NCBI GenBank assembly: GCA_963698035.1 | Contig: OY969114.1 | Span: 660,001 to 692,000, forward strand | Reading direction: 5' to 3' | DNA: 32,000 nucleotides | Source of the DNA: Candidatus Saccharimonadota bacterium | GTDB lineage: Archaea; Micrarchaeota; Micrarchaeia; Micrarchaeales; Micrarchaeaceae | Shown: piece after piece, positions 1,965 through 32,000 of the stretch | How positions within the stretch are numbered: position 1 is the stretch's first letter | Layout of the letters: every line of letters begins with the position of its first letter | The notes under the pieces: model-generated | What the model saw: only the letters and a program-made list of their open reading frames with translations | The model's database searches: none | Told to the model about the DNA's origin: nothing | Made by a program: the position numbers and the translations under genes

Positions 1965-2022
1965 AAGCCTTTTATATCTAATTATACATAGTTACACTAA
2001 TTATATGTAATTAATAGGTGGT
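1965..2022 (+). promoter_or_regulatory. Promoter/operator of the 2026 operon: TATA-like ttttatat, three TAATTA hexamers and a GGTGGTG Shine-Dalgarno
   Basis: aagccttttatatctaattatacata (1965-1990) matches 19210-19235 with one mismatch. Palindromic TAATTA hexamers sit at 1979-1984, 1998-2003 and 2008-2013. aggtggtg at 2016-2023 lies just upstream of ATG 2026. Confidence 0.6.
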
Positions 2023-2025
2023 GTA

Positions 2026-2838
2026 ATGGAGATAAAAGAATTGACCATAATGGGAGGACGCGGGAAGTCTGGCGATCGCGAGCCCGTCACGAAAGTGAAG
2101 ATGAAGATGGGGCAGATAATCAGCATAGTGGGTCCTACTGGCTCAGGCAAGACCGAACTGATAAACGACATTGAGAGGTTCGCCAACAAGAACACACCCT
2201 CCATGCGCCAGGTGCTGATAGATGGTGACGTCGCTCCTGACGATTTCATCGGCGACCCATCAAAGAATCCAGTCGCACTGATAACCCAGCATACCAACTT
2301 CCTCTCCGACCTGCCTGTCAACAAATTCCTTGAGACGCATGCTAGAATAAGGCAGAACCTATCGGGCCAGGAATTGGAGGCGCTTGTTACTAACACTATC
2401 GACTTTGCGAACAAGCTGACTGGAGAATCGATAATCCTCGAGAGCGCTATGACGGAGCTCTCGGGCGGTCAGACCCGCGCGCTGCTCATAGCTGATGCCG
2501 TAGTGATAGGCAATTCACCGATAATACTGCTTGACGAGATAGAGAATGCGGGCATTCACAGGACAAAGGCGCTCGAGCTTCTGAAGGGTTACAGGAAGAT
2601 ATTTATCTTCGTGACTCACGACCCAAGGATAGCGTTGCTGTCCGACTTCAGGATTGCGATGAGTAGCGGTTCGATGCAGAAGGTGATTATGAGAGAGGAC
2701 AAGGAGAAGCGTGTTGAGGACGAACTGAGGAAGATGGACGACCTCCTCTCAGATTACAGGATGAAGATAAGAGCCGGTGAACAACTTGACGAGGAGGAGA
2801 TTAAGAAGAAGCTGAAGGCGATTGGATACATTTCTTAG
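2026..2838 (+). CDS. ABC-type ATPase without an associated permease (orphan ABC ATP-binding protein)
   Basis: Walker A GPTGSGKT, ABC signature LSGGQ, Walker B/D-loop ILLDEIENAG and H-loop VTHDP. The C-terminal tail is charged and coiled-coil-like. There are no TM segments. Confidence 0.8.
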   Translation: MEIKELTIMGGRGKSGDREPVTKVKMKMGQIISIVGPTGSGKTELINDIERFANKNTPSMRQVLIDGDVAPDDFIGDPSKNPVALITQHTNFLSDLPVNKFLETHARIRQNLSGQELEALVTNTIDFANKLTGESIILESAMTELSGGQTRALLIADAVVIGNSPIILLDEIENAGIHRTKALELLKGYRKIFIFVTHDPRIALLSDFRIAMSSGSMQKVIMREDKEKRVEDELRKMDDLLSDYRMKIRAGEQLDEEEIKKKLKAIGYIS

Positions 2839-2848
2839 AAGGGATACA

Positions 2849-3547
2849 ATGAAAACTATAATCTGTGCCGGACCGCCATCAAGCGGAAAGACTACCGTAC
2901 TGAAGCAGGCAGCAAGGAGGCTCAAAGAGAAGAAGCTCAAGCTGGCATACCTAAAGATAGACGTCCAGTTTACTGAGGAGGACGAAATATTCAGGCGCGA
3001 ATTTGGGATACCGGCGAAGAAGGTCTACTCTGGCGAGATATGCCCGGACCACTGCAATGTAATGGTCCTGGGGGACGCCGTGAAGTGGGCGGAAGAGCTT
3101 GGTTCAGATATACTATTTGTCGAGACCGCGGGTCTCTGCCTGCGCTGCTCACCTTACATGGAGGGCTCGCTGGGCATAGCCGTGCTTGAGGCTACGAGCG
3201 GAATGAACCTGCCGCGCAAGATAGGCCCGCTGCTCTCACTCGCGGACATCGTTATGATAACAAAGATAGACATGGTCTCCCAGGCGGAACGCGAGGTGTT
3301 CAGGGCCAACGTTGCCTTATCTGCCAAGGCGTACATAATCGAGACAGACGCGCTTCACGGGATCAACATCGACAGACTTGTGAAGAAGATAGAGGCTGCC
3401 CCTGAGACAAAGAGCCCGATGTTCCTGAGGGGCAATCCGCCGGTCGGCGTATGCACCATATGTGTGGGAAAGAAAGAGATTGGGTGGCAGCAACACTTCG
3501 GCGTGGTGAGACCACTCGAGGGTGATATGTTCTACCGAGGCGAGTGA
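2849..3547 (+). CDS. G3E-family (HypB/UreG-like) P-loop NTPase
   Basis: Starts MKTIICAGPPSSGKTTVL (P-loop). ICPDH, VETAGLCLRCSP and ADIVMITKIDM parallel the HypB/UreG CPH, ENVGNLVCP and NKxD segments. C-terminal CTIC. ATG 2849 lies 10 nt after the upstream stop; the track's start at 2822 overlaps the previous gene and seems less likely. Confidence 0.65.
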   Translation: MKTIICAGPPSSGKTTVLKQAARRLKEKKLKLAYLKIDVQFTEEDEIFRREFGIPAKKVYSGEICPDHCNVMVLGDAVKWAEELGSDILFVETAGLCLRCSPYMEGSLGIAVLEATSGMNLPRKIGPLLSLADIVMITKIDMVSQAEREVFRANVALSAKAYIIETDALHGINIDRLVKKIEAAPETKSPMFLRGNPPVGVCTICVGKKEIGWQQHFGVVRPLEGDMFYRGE

Positions 3548-3551
3548 TTCC

Positions 3552-4730
3552 ATGCTGCACAAGATATATTTAGACAATGGTGCGACTACAAGGGTCGACC
3601 CCAGGGTGCTTGAGGAGATGCTTCCATACTTTAGCGAGCGATTCGGCAACGCTTCCAGCATGCACTCGTACGGCGAGGAAGCGAAGGAGGCGCTTGCCTC
3701 ATCTAGGGAGAGGATCGCAAGCTCGATAGGGGCCAAACCAGAGGAGATAGTCTTCACCTCTGGCGGTACAGAATCAAATAATCTTGCTATAAAAGGAATA
3801 GCTTATGCGAATTCAGACAAAGGCAAGCACATAGTCGTCTCCTCGATTGAGCACGATTGCATCCTCAATTCCTGCGAATGGCTCAGGTCGCAGGGGTTCG
3901 AGGTCACATACCTCCCCGTCGACCACGACGGGCTTGTAAATGTTGAGATGATAGAATCTGCGATAAAGCCGAGTACCATCCTTATTTCTGTGATGCATGC
4001 GAACAATGAGATAGGCACAATAGAACCAATAGATGAGATAGGTAAACTTTGCAGGGAGCATAGCATTTACTTCCATACCGATGCATGCCAGTCATTCGGG
4101 AAGATACCGTTCAACGTGAACAGCCTCAATATCGATCTGGCAACCATAAACGCGCACAAGATGTACGGGCCGAAAGGAGTCGGCGCGCTCTTCATAAAGG
4201 ATGGCACAAGGATATCGCCGTGGCAGCATGGCGGCGGCCACGAGCACGGGATGAGGTCTTCCACCGAGAACATCGCAGGCATAGTGGGATTTGCGAAGGC
4301 TGCGGAGCTGTGTGCATCAGAGCTGGATACTGAGGCAAAACGGCAGTCGGGCTTAAGAGACAAGATAATAAATAAGATTATGGAGAAACTGCCTGCGGCA
4401 TACCTGAACGGTCACAGGACAAAGCGCTTGCCGAACAACGTCAACTTCTGCTTCCACGGTCTCGAAGGCGAGGCGATAAGGGTACTCCTCGATCTCGACT
4501 CAAAGGGCATAGCGGTTTCTACAGGATCCGCGTGCTCAGCAAACCAGCCGAGAGGGAAACCCTCTCATGTTTTGCTTGCGATAGGGTTGAATCCAGTCGA
4601 GGCAAGAGGTCAGCTGAGGGTCACCCTCGGGCGATTCAACACAGAGGAAGAGGCGGACTATTTCGTTGACACATTGTCGGACGTCGTCAGTTCGCTTAGG
4701 CCTCTTTCGTCTACTAGATTAGGTGTATAA
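3552..4730 (+). CDS. nifS: Cysteine desulfurase, NifS/IscS type (class V aminotransferase fold)
   Basis: MLHKIYLDNGATTRVDP start. Motifs GGTESNN, HANNEIG, HTDACQSFGK, PLP-lysine context NAHKMYGPKGVGALF, and catalytic Cys loop STGSACS. ATG 3552 lies 4 nt after the previous stop. Confidence 0.9.
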   Translation: MLHKIYLDNGATTRVDPRVLEEMLPYFSERFGNASSMHSYGEEAKEALASSRERIASSIGAKPEEIVFTSGGTESNNLAIKGIAYANSDKGKHIVVSSIEHDCILNSCEWLRSQGFEVTYLPVDHDGLVNVEMIESAIKPSTILISVMHANNEIGTIEPIDEIGKLCREHSIYFHTDACQSFGKIPFNVNSLNIDLATINAHKMYGPKGVGALFIKDGTRISPWQHGGGHEHGMRSSTENIAGIVGFAKAAELCASELDTEAKRQSGLRDKIINKIMEKLPAAYLNGHRTKRLPNNVNFCFHGLEGEAIRVLLDLDSKGIAVSTGSACSANQPRGKPSHVLLAIGLNPVEARGQLRVTLGRFNTEEEADYFVDTLSDVVSSLRPLSSTRLGV

Positions 4731-4731
4731 A

Positions 4732-5460
4732 ATGGATGACAAAGAAATTAAGAGGCAGAGGATTTTGGAGCAGCTACCCGGACTCAACTGCGGCGCCTGC
4801 CGCTTCGGCGGCTGTGCTGGTCTTGCCGCTGCGATAGCGGACAACTCCGCTGGGCTCGAGGACTGCGTAGTGATAAAGAGGGGCGGGGCTCAACCATCGG
4901 GCGCAACCACGCAGAAAATTTCTTCCAGCATTTCTTCGCAGCAAAGCGCATGCGTCGGCTGCGCCGTCTATCCTGGTTCGCAGGAGGGAAGGACGTGGAA
5001 GGACTTCCTCGGCCGAGAGTACGATTTCGTTCTTGAGATATTTCCAGGCGAGCCCGGGCCCAGGGAAACGATACTCCCCCACAACCCGGCGCTCACCAAG
5101 GAGCTTGACATACAGAAGGGCGACATACTTGTGGGCAGGCCCCTTGGAATGTCGTGCGGTTGCCCGATAACCCATTCCGGCATAGTGATGGACGTTGACC
5201 ACAGGACTGGCGTAATAGTCTGGTGCGTCACAGGTCCGCTGCAGCCAAGGTCAAAGGGCTTCAAGGACATGGGCTACTACGTAGCGGAGGCGTACGAAGG
5301 CATAATCAAGGAGTCGAAGAAGGAGCTCAAGATCGGGATGAGGTACTGGTTCCAGCCCCAGCTGTGCATGCTGCAGTGGAGGCACAGCGGGCTGATCAAC
5401 TTCCTTACCAAGATGAAGGGAGGCACGCAGGTAAGAATAGAGGGGCTGTACATAGGCTAG
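4732..5460 (+). CDS. Fe-S cluster domain protein (RnfB-type N-terminal 4-Cys domain) with an uncharacterised Cys-containing C-terminal domain
   Basis: LPGLNCGACRFGGCAGLAAAIADNSAGLEDC matches the 4-Cys 'putative Fe-S cluster' domain found at the N-termini of RnfB and CODH/ACS subunits. A Ser/Gln-rich linker follows, then CVGC and CGCP motifs in a ~170-aa domain I cannot assign. ATG 4732 lies 1 nt after the nifS stop (an alternative GTG at 4723 overlaps it). Confidence 0.6.
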   Translation: MDDKEIKRQRILEQLPGLNCGACRFGGCAGLAAAIADNSAGLEDCVVIKRGGAQPSGATTQKISSSISSQQSACVGCAVYPGSQEGRTWKDFLGREYDFVLEIFPGEPGPRETILPHNPALTKELDIQKGDILVGRPLGMSCGCPITHSGIVMDVDHRTGVIVWCVTGPLQPRSKGFKDMGYYVAEAYEGIIKESKKELKIGMRYWFQPQLCMLQWRHSGLINFLTKMKGGTQVRIEGLYIG

Positions 5461-5555: not shown

Positions 5556-5565
5556 CTTATAAATA
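5556..5565 (+). promoter_or_regulatory. TATA-box-like element upstream of tRNA-His
   Basis: cttataaata is centred about 32 nt upstream of the tRNA 5' end. Confidence 0.4.
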
Positions 5566-5592: not shown

Positions 5593-5665
5593 GGCCTTAG
5601 TGGTGTAACGGCTCGCACGGAAGGCTGTGGACCTTCAAGACCGGGTCCGACCCCCGGCTAAGGCC
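5593..5665 (+). tRNA. tRNA-His (anticodon GTG) with a genome-encoded G-1
   Basis: Folded by hand. G-1 (5593) pairs with C73 (5665). Acceptor GCCTTAG/CTAAGGC. Anticodon stem GAAGG/CCTTC with loop CTGTGGA. T arm CCGGG-TCCGACC-CCCGG. No encoded CCA and no intron; a T-run follows. Confidence 0.9.
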
Positions 5666-5712
5666 TTTAATTTCTTACATGTCTCTTAATTTTATAATGG
5701 CAGCGATTGCCG

Positions 5713-6546
5713 ATGATCAAAATGCAGGGGAAAATGAAGGTCAGGGATGACCAGAACATAATGATAGACGATGCGCTTCTTGATGCTATCGCAGGACTGG
5801 CCACCCTCAACAAAAAGGATTCCGTTCTTGAGATAGGCGGCGGTCCCGGCAACCTGGCGAAGCGGCTCGCAAAACAGTGCGGCAAATTGACTATAGTAGA
5901 AAAAGACGAGAGATACGCCAAATTGCTTGAGGATAAATTCAATGGTGTCGGTGCAGTGACCGTCATACACGGCGATATTCTGAAAGTTGGCCTGCCGCGC
6001 TTCAACAAAATAGTATCCAATACCCCATATTCGATACTGCAGCAATTCTTCGTCAGGCTCGTAAAGGAGAGGAGATACAACTTCGAGTGCGCGGTGCTTG
6101 TAGTGCCCCATGGCTTTACTGCGAAGATCACCGCCCAGCCCAGTTCCCGCAACTTTGGCGCGCTCTCCGCGCTTTTCAGCGGGTTCTACAGGGTAGAGGT
6201 CTTGATGGAGATAGGGAAGGGCAGCTTCTCCCCCCCGCCAAGGGTAAAATCCGAATGCGTCAGGATTACGTTAGCCGATGGCGCGCCCAAGGACATAACC
6301 GGCTATCTCTTCAGGAAGCTCTTCCTAAACGAAGATAAAAAGGTAAAGAACCTGCTTACCGAACTATTCTGGAACGATGGCAAACTGCTCTTCGATAGAA
6401 GGTTCACGAAGACCGAGTCCCAAGAACTGGCCCATAAGGCTCTCGGAGCCAGGTTCGCCTCTATCGGCGACAAAAAGGCAGCCGAGCTAAGCAATGCAGA
6501 GTTCAGGTGCCTCGCTAACTCGGTCAGGCAACCGCAACCGACATAG
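5713..6546 (+). CDS. ksgA: 16S rRNA (adenine-N6,N6)-dimethyltransferase KsgA/Dim1
   Basis: SAM-binding VLEIGGGPGNLA, and catalytic-region IVSNTPYSI (NxPY). Length and order are typical of KsgA. ATG 5713 is preferred over TTG 5707 because ttaattttataa (~5685-5696) lies about 25 nt upstream. Confidence 0.85.
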   Translation: MIKMQGKMKVRDDQNIMIDDALLDAIAGLATLNKKDSVLEIGGGPGNLAKRLAKQCGKLTIVEKDERYAKLLEDKFNGVGAVTVIHGDILKVGLPRFNKIVSNTPYSILQQFFVRLVKERRYNFECAVLVVPHGFTAKITAQPSSRNFGALSALFSGFYRVEVLMEIGKGSFSPPPRVKSECVRITLADGAPKDITGYLFRKLFLNEDKKVKNLLTELFWNDGKLLFDRRFTKTESQELAHKALGARFASIGDKKAAELSNAEFRCLANSVRQPQPT

Positions 6547-7827
6547 CGGGCTTGCGCTTCGCCTTCGAGAATATATACCCGCTCACCAGTATGAGTGCCC
6601 CTCCAAGGACGAAGGTGACCCAGTAGCCGAGATAGAATGCGGTGTAGCCTGAAGCGAGCGCGCCTATCAACGTGCCTATGCCCATCAGCGCTGTGTAGGC
6701 GCCCAAGGCGCTGCCCCTCTCTGGCCCCTTCAACGAGTTGAAGACCAGGGTGTTCGACGCAGTGTAGTAGAATGCGTACGCGATCCCGGATGCTATCGGA
6801 TAGAAGATCAGTCCTCCAATGAAGGCCCCTATCCTGCTGTAGAGCAGGAAGGCCACGCCTATCATTATGTAGGAGCCGGCCCTCAGCACGAGCGAGCTCG
6901 TTATCGTTGATATCTTCGCCCCCCCTTTGAATGAGTTGCCGAGCAGGTAGAAGGCCGCGACCTGCACCGCCATGCCCACAAGCAGCACAAGGAAGATGCT
7001 CGACTCGGCGAGCCCCACCCCCTTCAACCCCGCCGGATACATGGTGTTGAAGACACCAGAGCCCAGCGAGAAGACGAATATAGCAGCGTATATTATGGTT
7101 ATCTTCCTGTACCCGTCGACCGGATTTGACAACCTGTGCCAGAGCCTCTTGATGGTCGATATACTGGGGTTCTCATTATCATGACCGGGCTGACGAATAT
7201 CCTGGACATGAATGCGAAGAGGTTCCTCGAGAAGTTGAGCTTGGAGAACCTCTCCTTGGGCTGATAGACGAATATGACTGTCAGCACGGCAGAGGCGATA
7301 GCGAGTGCGAAGAAGACGAGCATCAGCTCCTTTAGCGAGAGGAGCCCTGCCACTATGACCGCCACTACGAATCCTATGGTGGTGCCTAGGCTCCCCACGG
7401 TCTGCAGCTTGGAGAACGATGCGGCCCACTTCTGCCTTGGGCTTGTCCCCATCACCAGCAGGTTCAGGGGCGTGGCGTTGGCAGCCGTCACGAATGCGTA
7501 TAGCCCATATGTTAGTATCACCCCCAGTACGCTCCCGAGCAGCATGAACGCGAGGAGCAGGACGGCCAGGCCCAGATAGGAGAGCACTATCTGCGCCCTC
7601 ATCTTCTGGAAGGTGTCGCTGATAGAGCCCCAGAAGAACGCAGCGGGTATGGCTAGCGCGCTCGCAAGCGCTATGGCGTACGAGACATCTATCACCGTGC
7701 CACCCAACTGCAGTATGTAGAGCGTTATCACGCTCGAAAGCGGCCCTACGGCTATGCTGGCAGGCAGCGTGGTGTATATCCATCGTGTGCTTCGCCTAAG
7801 CTTGTAATCTTTGCTTCGGTTCTCCAT
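6524..7827 (-). pseudogene. MFS-type transporter split across two reading frames (N-half 7099-7827, C-half 6524 to ~7190)
   Basis: The 7099-7827 ORF encodes about 6 TM helices (MENRSKDYKLRRSTRWIYTTLPASIAVGPL...). The 3' part of the 6524-7783 ORF encodes about 6 more (KITIIYAAIFVFSLGSGVFN...GYWVTFVLGGALILV). The join falls in the central cytoplasmic loop, and the frames are offset by one nucleotide. Confidence 0.6.
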
Positions 7828-8030
7828 GGCCGCACCAAGGGGTTAGAGTAGTGTAGTAGGATGTTAAGGAAAGCCTTTTAAATGTTAGTAGAGAGATTTT
7901 GATTAGTGATTTACGTGGGAGGAACTTCGCAGCCATCGCCCGATGGTAAACATCCAGCCACATAGGCATACGCTAGGGTCTACTCTTCAAGTTAGTTATT
8001 GCGTAGCAGTCCTTGTGCTGCTTCATCGCG

Positions 8031-9347
8031 TCAGTCCGTTGCCGCCCTATTGCTTTCAAATCTTCTCAATCCCAAATAGCCAACAAGCTGCTCTGTCACT
8101 ACCGCCGTCTCAACCTCGATCCCCCGCAAGCGTGCGCCCAGCCTCTCCACTATTGACTCTACACTGCCTTCGAACACCGGAGGTATGAAAATAATCCCGT
8201 ATGGCGACGACACATCCGCAACAAGCGCATATCCGTTTGCAGGCGTGTCATTTTCCTCTATCATCTCCATGAGCTGCTCCTTACCGACAATGTTGAAAGC
8301 GTTTATGTCGGTCTGCTTCATGTAGATGAAGCCGCAGTACTTGATGGGCAGCCTCTGCATGTTTATCGTAGACCTCTCTATGATCCTCTTCTCGAGCAGC
8401 TTATGGTAGGTGTACTGCGCGCTTCCCTTGTGGAGCCCGTACTTCTCGTCTATCTTAACGAAATCGATCCCTGCATCTAAGTTCAACTCCTTCATGGTCG
8501 CATACTCGCTCGGCAGCAGCTGGCCGACTCCCTTTCTGGGCGAATCGCGGCTCTTGCTCCATATCTTCTCCTCGAGAAGGTCGAAGAACCTACTCCTCAG
8601 CGGCACGAAGCCATACGATTCTATCATGTAGCCTACCTGCCAAACAGACTCGGCGCCCGCGAAGAGCCTGTCCGACCTGAACCCGTATATCACATCGTCG
8701 AGCTTCTTTGTGTCCTCCGCTATTACGTAGATAAACATATCGTAATCGCCGCGCATTAGCAGCACCAACTGGATCCTTGGCTCACCCTCAAAAAGCGCCC
8801 TCATCGCAGGGATGTCTGGCCTTCCTTTCAAGAACTTCACCGTCACCATGTAGCGGGTAAAGCCGAACCTCTCCGGCAGGAGCTCAATCGTCTTCCTTAT
8901 GCCATAGCCCCTCTCGAGCTTCTCAAGCCTGTACGATGCCGCGCTCCTGCTTATCCCCACCTTTTTGGCGATCTCCGGGGCGGATATCCTCGAGTCCATG
9001 CTGATTTCGGTGAGTATGCGCCTGTCTGTGCTGTCCGGATGTATCGCTGCGTGGGCGCCGCCCCCCTCGCTCTTTGAGGAGGCCTCAATGTACTGTTCAA
9101 TCCCGCTCACCCTGGTCCTGTCCGACCTGTGGAGGGCCTGGGTCATCATCCCGTCCTTGTCGATCCAGCCTATGTAGAACTGGCGCTTCCTCCTCGCGCC
9201 GCTGCGCCAGTCGAGTATGTAGATGTATTCATAGACGCAGTACCTTCCCCTTATCACAGAGATGGAGAGCTTGCTCTTCCTGCTCCTCCTCAGCTCCTCC
9301 AGCGTTCTCGATATAGCCTCGGGATAGCCCCCTGCTCGCCTCGCCAT
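8031..9347 (-). CDS. Tandem (duplicated) Lrp/AsnC-type transcription regulator with an N-terminal extension
   Basis: There are two HTH+RAM-like units. Unit 1 is RRILTEISMDSRISAPEIAKKVGISRSAASYRLEKLE...YMVTVKF...DYDMFIYVIAEDTKKLDD. Unit 2 is EYATMKELNLDAGIDFVKIDEKYGLHKGSAQYTYHKLLEKRIIE...GFIYMKQ...YGIIFIPPVFEG. They are preceded by about 100 aa of unknown function. Confidence 0.7.
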   Translation of the reverse strand: MARRAGGYPEAISRTLEELRRSRKSKLSISVIRGRYCVYEYIYILDWRSGARRKRQFYIGWIDKDGMMTQALHRSDRTRVSGIEQYIEASSKSEGGGAHAAIHPDSTDRRILTEISMDSRISAPEIAKKVGISRSAASYRLEKLERGYGIRKTIELLPERFGFTRYMVTVKFLKGRPDIPAMRALFEGEPRIQLVLLMRGDYDMFIYVIAEDTKKLDDVIYGFRSDRLFAGAESVWQVGYMIESYGFVPLRSRFFDLLEEKIWSKSRDSPRKGVGQLLPSEYATMKELNLDAGIDFVKIDEKYGLHKGSAQYTYHKLLEKRIIERSTINMQRLPIKYCGFIYMKQTDINAFNIVGKEQLMEMIEENDTPANGYALVADVSSPYGIIFIPPVFEGSVESIVERLGARLRGIEVETAVVTEQLVGYLGLRRFESNRAATD

Positions 9348-11510: not shown

Positions 11511-11585
11511 TGGGCCCGAGGAGATTTGAACTCCTGACCTTCCGATTATCAGTCGGATGCTCAAACCAGGCTAAGCTACGAGCCC
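11511..11585 (-). tRNA. tRNA-Ile (anticodon GAT)
   Basis: Minus-strand sequence is GGGCTCGTAGCTTAGCCTGGTTTGAGCATCCGACTGATAATCGGAAGGTCAGGAGTTCAAATCTCCTCGGGCCCA. Acceptor GGGCTCG/CGGGCCC has one G-U pair. Anticodon stem TCCGA/TCGGA with loop CTGATAA. T arm CAGGA-GTTCAAATC-TCCTG. No CCA and no intron. Confidence 0.9.
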
Positions 11586-14196: not shown

Positions 14197-14937
14197 TTGG
14201 CGCGACCAATTACACCGAGAAGGTACAGGAACCACATGATACTCGCATTCATAATAGCCGTCATAGTTGTCATAGCCGTCTACTCCGGCGCCACATACTA
14301 CTCCTCTGCAAGGGCCGCCTCGCTGGAATCGCAGGTGAACGCCCTCCGGGCGAACAATACCGCGCTCGCCCAGAACTATAAGTCGCTCGAGACGCAGTAT
14401 ACGGTGCTCCAGGTGAGCTTCAACAACACCTACACGGCATACATAACCCTGAGAGGCGCGCTTGCCATCTCCGGACCAATGGTCATATACCAGAGCAAGA
14501 GCCTGGTTCTGCAGTCGATACTCTATCCATCATTCGTAGACAAGGGGTACAACGTGAGCTACCTTGCGTTCTTCGAGCCTACGCAGACGTACATATACTA
14601 CAATTCGTTCAAGTACCCGCCTTATTCGCCGCTAGAGTACATCAACGCCTCTTATTCTTACTACAACTTCAACCTCACCGAGCCCGAATCGGGCTATCTG
14701 GTGATAAACTACACCTCAAATTCGCCGAACGGCCTCCAGGTCTTGAGCAATAATTGCTCATCGCAGTCCTCAAGCCCATATGCGGTGTCAGAATACTCTG
14801 TGGCCAACCCGAACGCCGACGGTTCGATACAGTTGCCGATAAACAAAGGGACCAACTGCGTTTACATAGAGAACCCAAGCAATGGCGCAATCGGAGTCAA
14901 GTTCAGCGCAACCCTCTACGGTTACGCCGGCAGCTGA
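14197..14937 (+). CDS. Single-pass (N-terminal anchor) membrane protein with a coiled-coil and an Asn/Tyr/Ser-rich extracellular domain; probable glycoprotein
   Basis: A basic N-terminus is followed by the TM segment MILAFIIAVIVVIAVY, a heptad-like segment (LESQVNALRANNTALAQNYKSLETQYTVLQ), and a beta-rich region with many N-x-S/T sequons. The start is TTG 14197 or ATG 14236. No family was recognised. Confidence 0.5.
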   Translation: MARPITPRRYRNHMILAFIIAVIVVIAVYSGATYYSSARAASLESQVNALRANNTALAQNYKSLETQYTVLQVSFNNTYTAYITLRGALAISGPMVIYQSKSLVLQSILYPSFVDKGYNVSYLAFFEPTQTYIYYNSFKYPPYSPLEYINASYSYYNFNLTEPESGYLVINYTSNSPNGLQVLSNNCSSQSSSPYAVSEYSVANPNADGSIQLPINKGTNCVYIENPSNGAIGVKFSATLYGYAGS

Positions 14938-19260: not shown

Positions 19261-20121
19261 ATGGTATTGATGGCAAAATCAAAATTGAGTTTTAACAAGG
19301 GGCTGACAATCGGGCTTACAATAGTGATGCTCATCATCGCATATTTGTTGTATGTGTTTACAGATAATATAGCTGTCTCCCTTTTGGTGGTGTTTGGCTT
19401 TCTGCTGTCAATACTTGACACGTCTATGGGTATGGGATATGGAACAATAGGCACACCCGTACTGCTGATAGCTGGTATCTCTTCTGTAATAGCAGTGCCT
19501 GCAATCCTCATCTCGCAGTTTGTCTCGTCGTCGCTGGGAAGCATAGCACATAGGAAACTCAAGAATGCCGATGTTCTTAACATAAAGCACAGTGATGGAA
19601 AGATAACGATGGTGATTGTGGGGATGGGGCTCCTGGGTGCAATAGTTGGGGTCCTACTTGGAATAAGCTTACCAAAAGTATATCTCAATTCATATATAGG
19701 CTTGCTCGTTGTAGCAATGGGGGTATTGCTTATACTGGCGCCAAAATGGAAATTCTCGTGGCGCAAACTCTTCCCAATAGGCCTGATAAGCGGCTTTAAC
19801 AAAGCGATAAGCGGCGGGGGGTATGGGCCTGTTGTTACCTCTGGCTTGCTCATCTCGGGCAAACCTATAAAGAATTCCGTAGGAATTGCTGTCTTCTCTG
19901 TGGCTGTGATCACTCTTTTCTCATTTGCTCTCTATCTCCTTTCAGGAAAGATAAGCTCATATGCACCCGTGATTGGGATACTTGTTGGGGCAGCGATGGG
20001 TTCGCAGCTAGGGCCAAGGGTAACCCATAAGATGGTGCTGAAAAGGAATATTAAGATAATTGGGATAGTGGTTATCCTGCTCGGGCTTCTTACCCTTATA
20101 ACAACCTTTGTGAAACTCTGA
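19261..20121 (+). CDS. TauE/SafE-family (sulfite/organosulfonate exporter-like) membrane permease
   Basis: About 8 TM helices with an internal duplication. The Gly-rich family motifs are DTSMGMGYGTIGTPVLL and AISGGGYGPVVTSGLL. Confidence 0.7.
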   Translation: MVLMAKSKLSFNKGLTIGLTIVMLIIAYLLYVFTDNIAVSLLVVFGFLLSILDTSMGMGYGTIGTPVLLIAGISSVIAVPAILISQFVSSSLGSIAHRKLKNADVLNIKHSDGKITMVIVGMGLLGAIVGVLLGISLPKVYLNSYIGLLVVAMGVLLILAPKWKFSWRKLFPIGLISGFNKAISGGGYGPVVTSGLLISGKPIKNSVGIAVFSVAVITLFSFALYLLSGKISSYAPVIGILVGAAMGSQLGPRVTHKMVLKRNIKIIGIVVILLGLLTLITTFVKL

Positions 20122-26505: not shown

Positions 26506-27054
26506 CTATATGTGCGAGAGCAAGCTCTGCAGGAAGGATATTATCTGCTGGAATACGCTGCCTATTACGCCAAGAGATTGCGCTATCGTGGTCGTGGATG
26601 ATGCCGATGTGATTGTATTGGCCGGCAGCACAGTCGTGGTCGTTTCTATGCTGGTGGTGCTTATGGTCGGCACCGATGTCGTAGTGGTTGTCATAGGCAC
26701 AGGCTGCAGCTGGTATATGTTGAAATCAACGGTATGCAGCCTAGGTATATAGTTGACCTTTACCAGCACTATATAGCTACTGTTCTGGTCGTATAGCGGC
26801 ATCGGAGTGTTGAGGTTGAGATAGTAGCTGTGACCGTCCACCGTAACTCCGGATTCGTTAGGCGTTATATAGTTCTGAGTGAAGTTTTCCAGATATATCC
26901 CGATTACGACGCCGCTTGTGTCGTATGTGGATATGTTTATTATGTGGTAACCAACCTGTGTAGAGTTGCTATATGGGACAATCTGAGCGTGAGGAAGCGC
27001 GACAATTGCCAATAGCGCGAAAATAGAAACCAACACCGCAATCCTGCCGTTCAT
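26506..27054 (-). CDS. Secreted or N-terminally anchored protein with a stalk-like domain and a Thr-rich tail
   Basis: Signal/anchor MNGRIAVLVSIFALLAIVALPHA. The central domain is homologous to the membrane-proximal domain of the giant protein at 28235-28483. The C-terminal tract is Thr/Ser-rich (TTTTTSVPTISTTSIETTTTV). Confidence 0.6.
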   Translation of the reverse strand: MNGRIAVLVSIFALLAIVALPHAQIVPYSNSTQVGYHIINISTYDTSGVVIGIYLENFTQNYITPNESGVTVDGHSYYLNLNTPMPLYDQNSSYIVLVKVNYIPRLHTVDFNIYQLQPVPMTTTTTSVPTISTTSIETTTTVLPANTITSASSTTTIAQSLGVIGSVFQQIISFLQSLLSHI

Positions 27055-27976: not shown

Positions 27977-30900
27977 TCATCTTTTGTTTCTGCTGGCCCT
28001 CCTCCTAGTCATTCTGGTGTAGAGCAGGGCAACAACTATGGCCACTATAATAACAGCGACTATTGCCACTATCCCGATGGTGGATGCAATAAATGCGGAT
28101 GCAGCTGAAACTGGAGGAGATATCGTGGTTGTGGGCGCGACAGTTATAGGTGCTATTAGTATAGTTGTAGTGGCGGGTACCGGTGTAGTTACTGGAACTG
28201 TAGTGGTTGCTGGCACGGTTGTGGAGTTGCTTCCGCAGAGTAGTAGCGTCACTGTGTTAAGTATGGGCGTGTATGAAAGGCTTTGTAGATCAATTGTGTA
28301 GCTGGCGGTGTTGCTGCTTGGTAGGCTGACCTGCGTATTTAGGTACAATGTGTATGCAACGTTGTTGACGCTCACTCCGGTGTCGTTCGGGCTTATGAAG
28401 TTGTCCACTACATTGAACTGCGTCCCGTACAGCGTTATGGTTTCTTGGTTGTCCTGGGTGAAGTTGCTTATCTGGTAGCATGCGTTGTTGTTAATCTGCG
28501 TTACCGTTGGGCCTCCCGCTCCACCGCCTGCGGCACCGCTAACGCTGCCGCCTGTGTTGCTGTTGCTGTTTGAGGTACTGCTGGAGCTGCCTGTGGATAA
28601 TGTCGAATACGAGTATATTCCAAATATTGGATCAGCTGGTATGCTGAATAGTAGGCCGCATGTTGAAGCGTTAATCGTACTGTTGCTATGTGGTGTTATA
28701 GGTGTCCAGGTACCATTGACCAGCATGTAAGGCACAACATTGCTTCCACAGCTGTAGTACATTGTCACGCCCACCGTCACTACATTTGCCCCTCCGGTGA
28801 CATTTACCTGCAGGAGATAGAGTGCGGCGAAGTTGTCTGTCGAGTTTGATACCAACGGTGCGCCAGTATAATTCAAGACAGATACATGAAGTATCGTGTT
28901 GCTGTCGGACCTGAGGGAAAGGATGCCTATCGGGTCACCTATCGTTATGTTCCATGTGAAGTTAGCTGGTAGAGTAATGATAGTATTCTCTGATACATTA
29001 ATCGCAGAGTCTATAGTAACTGTAGTTATAGCATTAGCGAATTCATCTGCGTTATCTGTAACATTCTCAGAGACGCTAAACGTTCCTGGAACGTTGAACA
29101 TTATTGTGTTGTCACCAGTGTACAACCAGTAGCTCGCAGGTTTGTTTACGACGAACGGCTGGTTAAATGTATATGGCTGTGTGCCTTCGGATGCTGCACC
29201 TGTGAATATAATAGAGTTGCCCACCGTCGTAGATGTTGCGCTAGGCATGAGCGTCAGAGTAGGTCCATTGTTCACGCCTATATTATCAGTGCCTGTTCCT
29301 GTGCCTCCGAGCGAATCGATTACCTCAACGCAGTATGTTGACGGTGATGCGAGAGCAAGCGTTATAAATGTATTTGATGTTCCGCTCTGAACAGCTGCTG
29401 TGCCTGTGCAGCTGCTTCCTGAATACCAGTCATATGATGTATATGCACCGCTGCCTTCAGATGCTATTGCTGTAAGCGTTTCTGTTTGGCCTGAGTCAAT
29501 TACCGGGCTTGGCGGGTTAATCGTCACTGTTGGTGCCGCATTTACTATAATTGTGTTTGCTAGGGTTTCACAGCCATTCGCTGCAGTGCATGGACCTGAT
29601 AGGCCCCTGCTCGTGTCCCTTACCTGCACCTGCACGTTATATGTTTCCAGTATTGTATCTGGTGCCGCTATGTATGATACAGAGTTTGTTAGTGAGTTGA
29701 TTGGACCGTTTATCTGGCCGAATACATTGTTTATACCATTGAATATTGTAAAGTTGTATGTATACGCACCGGTTCCTCCAGCTATGCTGGCGGTTATAAG
29801 TGCAGCGCTTCCTCCTACATCAACTGCTGGCGGTACCACTGTCAAGAGCGACTCCAAAGCTGGGTAGACTGTCACGGTATTGGAGTTCGAATAGAATACA
29901 TACTGTGGGTTTGTTCCCTCGTCAGTTACCTGGGCGCTGTAGATGAAGTTGCCTATCGCATTTGCTACAATCGATATTCCACCTGAGCTTCCAGGGCTTA
30001 GTATTGTTGTGCTGTACGCTGTTGGGGTGTTGATTGTGTTTGTGTCATTGTAGAGGACCACATGGAACGGACCCGCCCCGCCATCTATGCCGATTAGGAA
30101 TGTCTCTACTTCTCCAGTGTCACTCACACTATACATTGGCGCGAATGTTGCTGTTGGTGCTGGCTCCACTACGACGTCTACAGAGCCTAACGAGCTGTTA
30201 ACTGCAGAATCCGTAACGCTGACAGAATATGGGAATGTTGTTGGATTAACCGCAGTAGGCGCTATATTGCACGTTACGGTTTTGCTGGATGTCGAAGTGG
30301 TGCAAGAGCCGGTGCCGCTGCCTGTCCATGTCAGTGTGTATGGAGCGACCCCTCCTGTTATTGTTGCCGTGAGTGTTTCTGTCTGGCCGCTGTCAATCGC
30401 AAGCGGATATGAGGAAGAACCAAGCGTTACGCCAAACTGCCCCACTGTGACCGTAGTAGTTTTAGAGTTAATTGTGTCTGGAACAGTTGTGCCAGTATCG
30501 GTTACCTGTACCATGAACTGCCAGTTACCCTGCTGGGTTCCAGGAGCAGTGACAAAGTTGTAGGTTTGGCAGTTTGTTGCACCGGAGATTGGCATGAATA
30601 TCGCGCTTCCCGGGCTCTCTTCATACCATTGACATTCGTTTGGAGAGTTGCCGCCTACTATGTTTACTGTAAGCACCGTGGTGTTGCCAGGCGAAATCTT
30701 CGTCGGGCTTGCAGATGCAGTAGCTGATAGCTGCAGATACACTGAAACGCCACTTAAAGTTGTCTTATTGACTGACTCTGGGGGTATTCCATTATCTGTT
30801 ATTAAAGCACTAAACTCCCAGTTGCCTATAGGTGTAGTGGCGTTGGTTACGAATATGTACTGGGAGGAGCCTGTTGCTCCAGATATTAGATTCCAAGCAT

Positions 30901-32000
30901 CTGTGTTTCCAGGCTGCTCAAACCACTGGTAGCTATATGGTGTTGTGCCTCCTCCCGCATCTGCAGTCAAGACCGATAGCTGGCCCTGATCCACGTTTGA
31001 GTGGCTTACTGTTATCGGCTTCACATACAGGGCTGGGTTTACTATAACTGATACGATTCCTGATGTTCCAGTGCCTTTGTTAGAGTCGGTCACTACAATA
31101 TAATAGTTGAATGTTCCTATCGCAACAGCGGTTGTTGAGTATGTTGGTGATGTTGCACCCAGAATTGCAACTGGCGTGGAACCCGAGTCGTTGTACCACT
31201 GATATGAATCACCACCCGAACCAATATTTGTCGTTGTTGAAGATAGGGATATTAACTGGGTTGTGTCGACTGCCGGAGTTGTTGTTGATGCGGTTATTGT
31301 TGGCAAATCAGATACTGTCACTAATGCAGTTCCTGATGTTCCAGTGCCTTTGTTAGAGTCGGTCACAACCGCATAATAGTCGAATGTCCCTGTTGTACCT
31401 GCCGTAAGTGTGAATGTACTTCCTGTCTGACCTGTAAGTACCGCACCAGATGTGTCATTGTACCATGTTATTGTGTCTGTTCCCGATCCTGCGTTGCCTA
31501 CTGTTGCTGTAAGTGTTACTGTCTGGCCGACATCCTCTGTCTGAGATGATGGAGATATTGATATTGTCGGTGTTGGTGATACTGCCACAGATCCTGTGTT
31601 GGACTGCCCTGTTCCGAGGTTTGAATCCGTCACTACTATGAAGTAGTTGAATGTTCCTGTTGCGCCCGCAGTAGTAGAGTATGTCAGTCCTGTCTGTCCT
31701 GATATCGGAGTTGATAATGATCCGTTGTACCACTGATATGAATCACCACCAGAACCTGTGTTTGTCACCGTTGCTGACAATGATACGGGTTGGCCTACGT
31801 CCTCAAATTGCGATGGTGGTGATACAGTTACTGTTGGTTTTTGTGTGACTGTCACGGATCCTGTGTTGGACTGTCCCATGCCACCGTTTGAATCGGTCAC
31901 AACCGCATAATAGTTGAATGTCCCTGTTGTTGCACCTGCGGTGAGTGTGAATGTGGATCCTGTCTGACCTGTAAGTACCGCACCAGATGTGTCATTGTAC
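27977..32000 (-). CDS. Giant cell-surface protein with tandem Ig/PKD-like repeats, a Thr/Pro-rich stalk and a C-terminal TM anchor; N-terminus lies beyond the window
   Basis: The frame stays open to nt 32000: codons 31901-31999 read YNDTSGAVLTGQTGSTFTLTAGATTGTFNYYAV, upstream of the GTG the track used as a start. Roughly ten to twelve ~90-100-aa beta-rich modules carry recurring SYQWY/ITWY and YxxVVTDSN motifs. Many N-x-S/T sequons are present. The C-terminus has a Thr/Pro linker, the TM segment AFIASTIGIVAIVAVIIVAIVVALLY and the basic tail RMTRRRASRNKR. Confidence 0.85.
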   Translation of the reverse strand, partial: YNDTSGAVLTGQTGSTFTLTAGATTGTFNYYAVVTDSNGGMGQSNTGSVTVTQKPTVTVSPPSQFEDVGQPVSLSATVTNTGSGGDSYQWYNGSLSTPISGQTGLTYSTTAGATGTFNYFIVVTDSNLGTGQSNTGSVAVSPTPTISISPSSQTEDVGQTVTLTATVGNAGSGTDTITWYNDTSGAVLTGQTGSTFTLTAGTTGTFDYYAVVTDSNKGTGTSGTALVTVSDLPTITASTTTPAVDTTQLISLSSTTTNIGSGGDSYQWYNDSGSTPVAILGATSPTYSTTAVAIGTFNYYIVVTDSNKGTGTSGIVSVIVNPALYVKPITVSHSNVDQGQLSVLTADAGGGTTPYSYQWFEQPGNTDAWNLISGATGSSQYIFVTNATTPIGNWEFSALITDNGIPPESVNKTTLSGVSVYLQLSATASASPTKISPGNTTVLTVNIVGGNSPNECQWYEESPGSAIFMPISGATNCQTYNFVTAPGTQQGNWQFMVQVTDTGTTVPDTINSKTTTVTVGQFGVTLGSSSYPLAIDSGQTETLTATITGGVAPYTLTWTGSGTGSCTTSTSSKTVTCNIAPTAVNPTTFPYSVSVTDSAVNSSLGSVDVVVEPAPTATFAPMYSVSDTGEVETFLIGIDGGAGPFHVVLYNDTNTINTPTAYSTTILSPGSSGGISIVANAIGNFIYSAQVTDEGTNPQYVFYSNSNTVTVYPALESLLTVVPPAVDVGGSAALITASIAGGTGAYTYNFTIFNGINNVFGQINGPINSLTNSVSYIAAPDTILETYNVQVQVRDTSRGLSGPCTAANGCETLANTIIVNAAPTVTINPPSPVIDSGQTETLTAIASEGSGAYTSYDWYSGSSCTGTAAVQSGTSNTFITLALASPSTYCVEVIDSLGGTGTGTDNIGVNNGPTLTLMPSATSTTVGNSIIFTGAASEGTQPYTFNQPFVVNKPASYWLYTGDNTIMFNVPGTFSVSENVTDNADEFANAITTVTIDSAINVSENTIITLPANFTWNITIGDPIGILSLRSDSNTILHVSVLNYTGAPLVSNSTDNFAALYLLQVNVTGGANVVTVGVTMYYSCGSNVVPYMLVNGTWTPITPHSNSTINASTCGLLFSIPADPIFGIYSYSTLSTGSSSSTSNSNSNTGGSVSGAAGGGAGGPTVTQINNNACYQISNFTQDNQETITLYGTQFNVVDNFISPNDTGVSVNNVAYTLYLNTQVSLPSSNTASYTIDLQSLSYTPILNTVTLLLCGSNSTTVPATTTVPVTTPVPATTTILIAPITVAPTTTISPPVSAASAFIASTIGIVAIVAVIIVAIVVALLYTRMTRRRASRNKR
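31057..32000. repeat. Intragenic tandem DNA repeats (units ~270 bp, super-repeat ~534-537 bp) within the giant surface-protein gene
   Basis: Exact matches were read directly. The 37 nt at 31057-31093 equal 31330-31366. The 28 nt at 31189-31216 equal 31723-31750. The 42 nt at 31422-31463 equal 31959-32000, and the flanks are highly similar. Confidence 0.85.

Follow-up and report, generated by a model that had tools for sequence, protein, structure and literature searches.

Positions 2026 to 5460 of a 32,000-nucleotide stretch of archaeal DNA (contig OY969114.1, positions 660,001 to 692,000 of the forward strand, assembly GCA_963698035.1; GTDB family Micrarchaeaceae, deposited as Candidatus Saccharimonadota bacterium), the whole of which is referred to here as the window, encode on one strand a soluble ABC-type ATPase, a G3E-class GTPase, a cysteine desulfurase and a two-domain iron-sulfur (Fe-S) protein, hereafter genes 1 to 4. 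The core unit of this cassette is a trio of ATPase, GTPase and Fe-S protein genes that recurs in the same order in bacteria and archaea, with the desulfurase gene as a frequent, optional insertion, and homologous trios are found beside coenzyme M (CoM) genes in methanogens. The function that we favour, while giving it a little less than an even chance, is that of a dedicated machine for mobilising sulfur with the aid of nucleoside triphosphatases (NTPases), in which a metal-sulfur centre is assembled or used on the gene 4 protein; the module probably handles inorganic sulfur in a manner not yet described. The analysis extends a single remark in the methanogen literature to a superfamily with at least three clades, represented in hundreds of bacterial and archaeal species.

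Conservation of the cassette was assessed with the best 79 loci of the window's clade (L001 to L079), gene order being counted where at least 3 kb were available upstream of the gene 4 homologue. The order ABC-G3E-(NifS)-FeS was collinear in 63 of 64 such loci, from more than 15 phyla and both domains; all four genes were present in 48 (75%), with the desulfurase gene placed between genes 2 and 4, a further 15 had ABC-G3E-FeS without NifS and one had gene 4 alone. Median identities to the window proteins, across the bacterial-archaeal divide, were 59% for the ABC protein, 65% for the GTPase, 49% for NifS and 55% for the Fe-S protein. Given this collinearity and the level of identity between domains, the adjacency of the genes therefore represents a conserved functional unit that goes far beyond chance. 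An earlier annotation made from the DNA sequence by itself (the initial annotation) had described one tightly packed operon forming a four-gene module; the operon was upheld by the collinearity, and the module proved to be conserved as well, with the correction that its conserved core comprises three genes, NifS being absent from about a quarter of the loci.

The best 79 loci included Micrarchaeota, Thermoplasmata, Planctomycetota, Omnitrophota, Chloroflexota, Bacillota, Acidobacteriota, Actinomycetota, Verrucomicrobiota, Nitrospirota, Bdellovibrionota, Myxococcota, Bacteroidota and further groups, and almost all are metagenome-assembled genomes (MAGs) from peat, lakes, groundwater and digesters. 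Neighbourhood comparison across Thermoplasmata and other archaea, as suggested in the initial annotation, revealed co-occurrence of the genes across many genomes; the closest cassette homologues were in Micrarchaeaceae MAGs, and not in Thermoplasmata alone. The window's clade is a very tight family, its members being at least 50% identical to the window's gene 4 protein. This gene 4 family is nevertheless large: upwards of 2,198 protein clusters matched it, each bearing no name beyond 'Fe-S cluster protein' or uncharacterised, and gene 4 was found in 451 of 185,579 species genomes (one genome per species). A tblastn search of plasmids with gene 4 gave no match. One Micrarchaeota MAG (L005) carried the gene 4 homologue twice, at 1824-2615 and 7997-8788, with identical tblastn statistics and each copy followed by the same AsnC-helix-turn-helix-type gene, which may reflect a recent duplication or an assembly repeat.

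The four genes span positions 2026-2838, 2849-3547, 3552-4730 and 4732-5460 (+ strand) and are separated by 10, 4 and 1 nt, in agreement with the initial annotation, whose coordinates and quoted motifs were all confirmed in the sequence. The ATG starts at 2849, 3552 and 4732 are supported because the alignments with homologues in other genomes begin at residue 1 of every protein.

Gene 1 (2026..2838, +) encodes a soluble ABC-type ATPase of 270 amino acids, in which PF00005 (50.6 bits against a cut-off of 25) was the sole Pfam domain. The motifs GPTGSGKT, LSGGQ, ILLDEIE and VTHD were found, the polypeptide had no transmembrane domain and ended in a charged helical tail, and K42 of the Walker A motif, Q88, LSGGQ (145-149), D170-E171 and H198 were at least 97% conserved among 99 homologues from both clades. 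Homologues in 63 related loci were 56-74% identical and always directly 5' of the GTPase gene. That gene 1 is an orphan, as the initial annotation had it, was corroborated: inspection of open reading frames (ORFs) and Pfam matches found neither a permease nor a binding-protein gene of the ABC type in the window, where the closest membrane-protein gene to the cassette encodes a major facilitator superfamily (MFS) protein on the opposite strand, and the ATPase is an orphan in almost all loci. Against NCBIfam transporter models its best score was 53 bits, compared with cut-offs of 245-867, and the SufC model was absent among its 25 best NCBIfam matches.

Gene 2 (2849..3547, +) is predicted to encode a G3E-class P-loop GTPase of 232 amino acids (PF02492, 47.5 bits against a cut-off of 20.7). 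Its sequence motifs are, all on the + strand, the Walker A motif GPPSSGKT (G13-K14; 2870-2893), Cys65-Pro-Asp-His68 (3041-3052), which a phmmer search against the PDB aligned with the CPH metal motif of UreG 5xkt, ETAGLCLRCSP (3122-3154; E92-T-A-G95 and the pair C97/C100 in the pattern ETAGLCxRCxP), TKID (TK139xD141; 3260-3271) and a C-terminal CTIC (C202xxC205; 3452-3463) with His216 further on. These motifs, the five Cys residues and His68 and His216 were at least 97% conserved among 121 homologues from both clades. Gene 2 was thus rightly likened to HypB and UreG in the initial annotation, having PF02492 and the UreG-type Cys-Pro-x-His motif and scoring below the HypB and UreG cut-offs; to judge from its sequence it is related to both and belongs to neither, and its GTP specificity and metal binding are predictions.

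Gene 3 (3552..4730, +) encodes a pyridoxal phosphate (PLP)-dependent cysteine desulfurase of 392 amino acids with a class-V aminotransferase fold (PF00266, 292 bits), its desulfurase identity having been recognised before, with the predicted PLP lysine Lys203 in HK203MYGPKG and the persulfide cysteine Cys328 in SAC328S. It passed the IscS subfamily model NF002806 (339 bits against 304) and fell short of the equivalog models of NifS, narrowly (TIGR03402, 512 against 530.75), and of IscS (TIGR02006, 430 against 643). On these profile scores it is classed as a group-I (NifS/IscS-type) desulfurase that cannot be assigned to either NifS or IscS proper. Among L001-L079 the cassette desulfurases fell into two classes of identity to that of the window, approximately 60-70% in archaea, some Omnitrophota, Phycisphaerae and Bacteroidales and approximately 46-51% in Chloroflexota and most other bacteria, a split that points to repeated recruitment or replacement of this enzyme.

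Gene 4 (4732..5460, +), the signature of the module, encodes a two-domain Fe-S protein of 242 amino acids. The N-terminal four-Cys domain (residues 15-46; 4774..4869, +; PF04060, 40.9 bits against 23), predicted to bind a [4Fe-4S] cluster, contains Cys20, Cys23, Cys28 and Cys45, which were invariant in 115 sequences. In a Foldseek comparison of the predicted model this domain superimposed on the corrinoid Fe-S protein (CFeSP) chain 4djd_C with a root mean square deviation of 0.8 A over 38 residues (probability 1.00), and the gene 4 profile also matched RnfB and CFeSP chains among PDB sequences. The term 'RnfB-type' of the initial annotation therefore holds for about 32 residues (PF04060), and not for the remainder, which is a separate domain with no assigned family. 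A linker joins the two; its CVGC motif (Cys74, Cys77; 4951..4962, +) is invariant only in the window's clade and missing from most methanogen-type paralogues, and the linker is disordered in the model, with a predicted local distance difference test score (pLDDT) below 50.

The C-terminal domain (approximately 155 amino acids; 4987..5457, +) is predicted to be beta-rich. Its invariant residues in the 115-sequence alignment of two clades were R111, E112, R136, P137, C144, P145, H148, F207, P209, C212 and H218; C144-P-x-x-H148 lies within CGCPITHS (residues 142-149; 5155-5178, +), and F207-x-P209 precedes the stretch with C212 and H218 (5365-5385, +). The arrangement of C144, H148, C212 and H218 would suit a Cys2His2 metal or cluster site, accompanied by a possible oxyanion-binding pair, Arg111 and Arg136. 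Pfam and NCBIfam gave no match to gene 4 outside residues 15-46, neither Foldseek with the C-terminal domain against the PDB nor a profile search of PDB sequences returned anything at E <= 0.001, and phmmer with this domain against 1.84 billion representative proteins yielded 148 matches only. The signature domain of the superfamily is hence without a Pfam family, and no relative of it could be detected among solved structures. Two long repetitive proteins that matched it weakly (P0247, P0270) gave a weak Bactofilin match or nothing and were set aside as uninformative. The AlphaFold2 model had a mean pLDDT of 86 with the mixed-clade 115-sequence alignment, compared with 52 with 18 close homologues. 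At residue 149 (5176-5178) Ser stands in the window in place of the Cys found in at least 90% of clade members (alignment A1), turning GCPITHCG into GCPITHSG; Cys149 is probably not essential, because the methanogen clades also lack it.

Gene neighbourhoods in bacteria and methanogens

A gene for an Rrf2-family regulator, often duplicated, lay directly upstream of the cassette on the same strand in 28 of 47 bacterial loci. Most of these regulators had no set of three cluster-binding Cys residues and are in this respect CymR-like, not IscR-like; IscR-like proteins with three Cys were encoded upstream in L010 and L025. Enzymes that form cysteine or homocysteine (CysK, CBS, the CGS/CGL family, CysE, or MetY/MetX/MetW) were encoded in 18 loci, the neighbouring CysK and CBS scoring above the TIGR01139 and TIGR01137 cut-offs, respectively, and the one CGS/CGL-family enzyme checked also scoring above its cut-off. 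As a group, these neighbours would provide NifS with its substrate. A fusion of metallo-beta-lactamase (MBL) and rhodanese domains resembling persulfide dioxygenase was encoded beside the cassette in four loci. SsuA/SsuC-like transporter genes adjoined the cassette in six, accompanied in Bacillota by Ldh_2. Three of the Bacillota loci (L046, L070 and L074) had the order second class-V aminotransferase, SsuA-like binding protein, SsuC-like permease, Ldh_2, cassette; their Ldh_2 proteins reached 270 bits with the L-sulfolactate dehydrogenase model, below its cut-off of 500, and no ATPase gene besides that of the cassette was present. Here, and in no other context, gene 1 might also serve a transporter as its ATPase. 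No ComA, cysteate synthase, ComDE or COG1900/MMP16 gene was identified in the window or among the recurrent neighbours of L001-L079, and no hydrogenase, hyp, urease or ure gene in the window or the loci examined.

Divergent full-length relatives of gene 4 formed two further clades, both present in cultured methanogens, and in both the Fe-S protein gene was again preceded by those of the ABC ATPase and the G3E GTPase. In full-length alignments the window proteins were 46% (ABC protein), 42% (GTPase) and 29% (Fe-S protein) identical to the Methanothermobacter trio. The GTPases have CPDH, GLCxRCxP and CxxC in common, and the Fe-S proteins the four-Cys domain, GCPxxH, FxPxxC and HxG. On these sequence relationships the window's clade is best described as a distinct sister family and not as an orthologue of the CoM-linked trio.

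The methanogen trios were found next to CoM genes. In Methanobacteriales the trio came directly after phosphosulfolactate synthase (ComA) in 34 metagenomic and genomic loci, the adjacent ComA scoring 340 bits with TIGR03849 (cut-off 280). At least eight Methanotrichales-type loci had the trio following, or in two cases preceding, cysteate synthase (TIGR03844, 598-613 bits against 325). ComD/ComE and COG1900 genes were frequently close by, and in Methanospirillum and Methanoculleus (Methanomicrobiales) the trio headed an operon continuing with HcyBio (COG1900), cysteate synthase and ComDE. A trio of ATPase, Ni2+-binding GTPase and COG2000 Fe-S protein genes beside CoM genes has been mentioned, with its role given as unknown, in the legend of Fig. 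2 of Chadwick et al. (PLoS Genet 2025; PMC12068725), besides which no literature on these proteins was found. Two steps of CoM biosynthesis are described as unclear, the sulfur species used in thiol formation (PMC12068725) and the source of the sulfite required (PMC6286981), and its location inside CoM operons makes the trio the obvious choice for filling one of these gaps. The CoM pathway is also a target for methane mitigation.

Further genes were observed around the methanogen-type trios. Among the loci L080-L128 (Methanobacteriales-type), 37 had a PF01996 gene (F420-0:gamma-glutamyl ligase-like) after the trio on the same strand, and many encoded, further downstream, TfuA and a QueC/ThiI-like ATP pyrophosphatase, which are functions of the thioamidation or sulfur-transfer type. 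A methanogen-type trio in Mangrovibacterium marinum (Bacteroidota; L082, 4473-8249) came after a HisKA_3/GerE two-component pair and was followed by MobC-like, relaxase and Fic genes, which seems to place it on the border of a mobilisable element. L131, L132, L135 and L149 likewise had this two-component pair ahead of the trio.

Proposed function and alternative explanations

The common denominator of these neighbourhoods is the supply or processing of inorganic sulfur, because the bacterial neighbours make cysteine and those in methanogens draw on inorganic sulfur, ComA and cysteate synthase using sulfite and the COG1900 step a sulfur donor. It is because of this shared context that a sulfur-mobilising machine is favoured here. 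Gene 3 would take sulfur from L-cysteine as a persulfide on Cys328, by the established chemistry of its family. The sulfur may then move to the C-terminal domain of gene 4, to Cys142, Cys144, Cys165 and Cys212 together with His148 and His218, where either a labile metal-sulfur centre or a protein-bound persulfide would result. Gene 2 could load or hold a metal or cluster through Cys-Pro-Asp-His, the two invariant Cys pairs and His216, a dimer of the gene 1 ABC protein may power a conformational cycle, as SufC does in SUF, and the RnfB/CFeSP-type [4Fe-4S] domain of gene 4 would pass electrons to the bound sulfur or take them from it. The outcome would be a reactive inorganic sulfur species that is passed on to sulfur-incorporating enzymes. 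For the methanogen paralogues we envisage sulfide in place of NifS and the CoM biosynthetic enzymes as consumers, and for the window's clade a consumer encoded outside the operon. The initial annotation had proposed a maturation or sulfur-trafficking machine; gene context favours sulfur trafficking, and a maturation machine and an enzyme are both candidate readings.

Several observations weigh against this proposal. To our knowledge, persulfide relays such as TusA, SufE and the rhodaneses operate without NTPases and without a domain for Fe-S electron transfer. NifS is dispensable in the 15 loci that lack it, the loci of the window's clade encode no conserved acceptor enzyme, and archaeal loci, including the window, have unrelated housekeeping genes as flanks. 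Moreover, many of the methanogen loci are syntenic copies of one lineage, which makes the independent events fewer than the counts, and the context evidence for a sulfur role is guilt by association.

Foremost among the alternatives, though we consider it unlikely, is that the trio forms an NTP-driven redox enzyme, with gene 4 as the catalytic subunit, which would alter the redox state of inorganic sulfur and give off sulfite. The substrate could be cysteine-derived persulfide in the window's clade, sulfide in methanogens and possibly activated sulfate, with NTP hydrolysis paying for unfavourable electron transfer through the low-potential [4Fe-4S] domain. Such an enzyme would account for a paralogous trio directly beside two non-homologous sulfite consumers, ComA and cysteate synthase, in orders that differ by lineage, in a pathway whose other steps all have assigned enzymes and whose sulfite origin is described as unclear (PMC6286981, PMC12068725). 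The invariant Arg111 and Arg136 could bind an oxyanion, gene 4 has an electron-transfer domain, and the two intact NTPases fit energy-coupled redox chemistry; a TauE/SafE gene occurs near the cassette in L002 and in the window, and genes for the MBL-rhodanese fusion adjoin it in four loci. On the other hand, no domain for siroheme, molybdopterin or any other cofactor known to form sulfite is present, a four- to six-electron oxidation on a 155-residue domain is without precedent, and no sulfite consumer is recognisably linked to the window's clade, where the bacterial neighbours make cysteine, so that oxidising it under a CymR-type sulfur-starvation regulon would be wasteful. A role in the last, thiol-forming step would explain the proximity to CoM genes just as well, HcyBio/COG1900 being the immediate neighbour in Methanomicrobiales. 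More doubtful still is the specific form of this idea, a siroheme-independent NTP-driven enzyme that converts cysteine persulfide or sulfide to sulfite on a new fold with a Cys2His2/Arg2 active site. A sulfite-forming enzyme, if real, would provide the long-missing sulfite source for CoM and other sulfonates in strict anaerobes.

A general alternative system of Fe-S biogenesis analogous to SUF, with NifS acting as SufS, the ABC protein as SufC, the GTPase as scaffold or carrier in the manner of Nbp35/ApbC and gene 4 as cluster carrier for many apoproteins, is improbable. The parts list does parallel SufS-SufBC2D, the invariant CxxC and GLCxRCxP of the GTPase resemble the bridging-cluster motifs of Nbp35/ApbC, IscR-like regulators stand upstream in L010 and L025, and the cassette is present in small Micrarchaeota-type genomes. 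Yet a distribution of 451 among 185,579 species points to an accessory system, the ABC protein is no nearer to SufC than to transporter ATPases, no SufB/D partner was seen in a reading of the ORF lists only, nor an IscU/NifU partner (IscU by tblastn), most upstream Rrf2 regulators are without cluster ligands, and a housekeeping role would not explain paralogues embedded specifically in CoM operons. An assimilatory reductase for oxidised or zero-valent sulfur, which when sulfur is limiting would reduce sulfite, thiosulfate, polysulfide or sulfonate-derived sulfite and so provide CysK and MetY with sulfide, seems to us quite improbable. It would suit the CymR-like regulators with CysK, CysE and MetY neighbours, the SsuA/SsuC-type transporter genes and the Ldh_2 (below cut-off) that adjoin the cassette in six loci, and source habitats that are mostly low-sulfate peat, lakes and groundwater; it leaves unexplained both a desulfurase that consumes the end product and methanogens that live in sulfide and keep the trio beside sulfite consumers, and sulfite reduction is exergonic and needs no NTP. 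Hardly credible at all are the ordinary readings, namely a HypB/UreG-type nickel accessory, the ATPase of a transporter encoded elsewhere, or phosphorothioation of the Dnd/Ssp type. The weak HypB/UreG similarity, the 512 bits of gene 3 on the PADLOC DndA/SspA models and the SsuA/SsuC-like pair in three Bacillota loci whose only ATPase gene is that of the cassette are outweighed by HypB/UreG scores far under the cut-offs without a hydrogenase or urease gene in either the window or the loci, by 63 loci that keep the ABC gene beside the GTPase gene without a permease, and by gene 3 missing TIGR03235, genes 1, 2 and 4 matching no DndB-E/SspB-D model and gene 4 finding no plasmid match.

Promoter region and flanking genes in the window

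The intergenic region upstream of gene 1 (1757-2025) has a GC content of 36%, compared with 51% across the window, and contains in an AT-rich stretch a TATA-like box, CTTTTATATCT (1969..1979, +), a putative single archaeal promoter of the cassette. A Shine-Dalgarno-like element, AGGTGGTG (2016..2023, +), whose role is proposed from its sequence, ends 2 nt 5' of the gene 1 ATG. Similar elements lie at the 3' end of gene 2 (GAGG) and at the 3' end of gene 3 (TAGGTG at 4720).

The cassette is flanked in the window by genes for DNA ligase, a small ORF, tRNA-His and KsgA. The upstream ORF at 1346-1756 had no Pfam match; it was considered as a conserved archaeal regulator and dropped, since each archaeal locus has different genes upstream, and it most likely lies outside the module. 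ARAGORN placed a tRNA-His (GTG) at 5593-5666 (+), 132 nt past the gene 4 stop codon, with TTATAAATAG at 5557, a good archaeal TATA box, approximately 30 nt 5' of it. The Rfam tRNA model at its gathering threshold did not report this tRNA and did report a tRNA-Ile at 11511-11585. Since tRNA genes are common integration sites, it is of note that the cassette ends beside one.

The MFS region (6524-7827, -) consists of two overlapping ORFs in different frames that resemble halves of one transporter: 7099-7827 (-) corresponds to the N-terminal half (PF07690), and 6524-7783 (-) has a junk-like N-terminus followed by a membrane-like C-terminal half. This suggests a frameshift near 7100-7200, either in a pseudogene or through an assembly error. 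A membrane protein of the TauE/SafE 'sulfite exporter' family is encoded at 19261-20121 (+; PF01925, 92.5 bits), 14 kb from the cassette, and a homologue with 56% identity at 2443-3294 in the Micrarchaeaceae locus L002, approximately 1.5 kb upstream of the cassette; the two genes are a weak hint at a link to sulfite, the family being broad. At 27977-31900 (-) lies the gene for a Thr/Ser-rich protein of 1,307 aa. It has numerous Ig/PKD-like repeats and a membrane anchor at its C-terminus, and is probably an S-layer-like surface protein. The ORFs at 26506-27054 and 14197-14937 likewise appear to encode secreted proteins, rich in Thr and Asn.

Comparison with known systems

The component proteins come from known superfamilies, and the combination of a desulfurase, P-loop NTPases and a Cys-rich acceptor resembles, in its apparent logic, known metal-sulfur assembly systems. 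The initial annotation had found the gene combination to be without a match; this is correct in that Pfam and NCBIfam searches left genes 1, 2 and 4 under every curated cut-off of characterised families and placed none of them in a characterised pathway, and it is not correct in that a homologous methanogen trio had already been noted (PMC12068725).

With UreG and HypB, gene 2 shares the SIMIBI/G3E signature, Walker A, ExxG, [NT]KxD and a Cys-Pro-x-His at the UreG metal site. It differs in the additional invariant GLCxRCxP and C-terminal CxxC...H, in always being paired with an ABC ATPase and in having no UreE/F/D or HypA partners, no urease and no hydrogenase. Its scores were accordingly low, at 55.1 bits with the HypB model TIGR00073 (cut-off 121.2) and 33.3 with the UreG model TIGR00101 (cut-off 204.2), with CP(D)H as the sole common feature noted for UreG. 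Gene 1 has the nucleotide-binding domain of ABC transporters and neither a permease or binding-protein partner nor a score that clears the cut-off of any curated transporter family. Residues 15-46 of gene 4 resemble the large subunit of CFeSP (AcsC/CdhE) and RnfB in sequence and predicted structure, whereas gene 4 has no corrinoid-binding TIM barrel, no RnfB ferredoxin repeats and no membrane anchor, and reached 20.6 bits with the RnfB model TIGR01944 (cut-off 68.7). The CFeSP cluster is the electron entry point in ATP-dependent reductive activation (RACE/CFeSP).

Dnd/Ssp systems similarly combine a desulfurase (DndA/SspA) with an ABC/SMC-like ATPase (DndD/SspC) and an Fe-S protein (DndC). Gene 3 scored 512 bits on the PADLOC DndA and SspA models, which capture generic IscS-like enzymes, and 395 bits with the DndA model TIGR03235, below its cut-off of 480. 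Genes 1, 2 and 4 matched none of the PADLOC DndB-E or SspB-D models, gene 1 giving a weak ABC match and genes 2 and 4 nothing. A reading as a defence system was rejected, PADLOC having returned just the generic DndA/SspA matches for gene 3, and the genomic context of the module differs from that of Dnd/Ssp in being sulfur amino-acid and CoM metabolism.

The methanogen trio of ATPase, GTPase and COG2000 protein has the same three proteins as the window, in the same order and with the same invariant motifs, and the genes of the window are homologous to and collinear with it, while colocalisation with CoM genes is not seen in the window's clade. Unlike the methanogen trio, this clade belongs to non-methanogens, usually has a desulfurase between the GTPase and the Fe-S protein, carries the extra Cys residues C74/C77, C142, C149 and C165, and is tied to Rrf2 regulators and cysteine biosynthesis, not to ComA, cysteate synthase, ComDE or COG1900. 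The window's clade thereby adds functional clues, a built-in desulfurase, CymR-like regulators and cysteine-forming neighbours, and makes the idea of a sulfur donor testable in vitro.

SUF is likewise built from a desulfurase, a soluble ABC-type ATPase and a Cys-rich acceptor and often stands under an Rrf2-family regulator. The cassette differs in having an extra G3E GTPase, an acceptor of a different, unassigned fold, no SufE or SufU homologue and an ABC protein that is not SufC-like above background. No SufB/SufD-like ORF was recognised in the window or its recurrent neighbours by ORF and Pfam inspection, no dedicated SufB search having been made. In line with the initial annotation, which had seen no U-type scaffold, tblastn with an E. 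coli IscU query found nothing in the window, where the best E was 2.6, and nothing at E <= 0.001 in L001-L079. Should the module prove to be a self-contained machine for sulfur or metal-sulfur assembly, it would join ISC, SUF, NIF, SMS and MIS as a further sulfur route of anaerobes.

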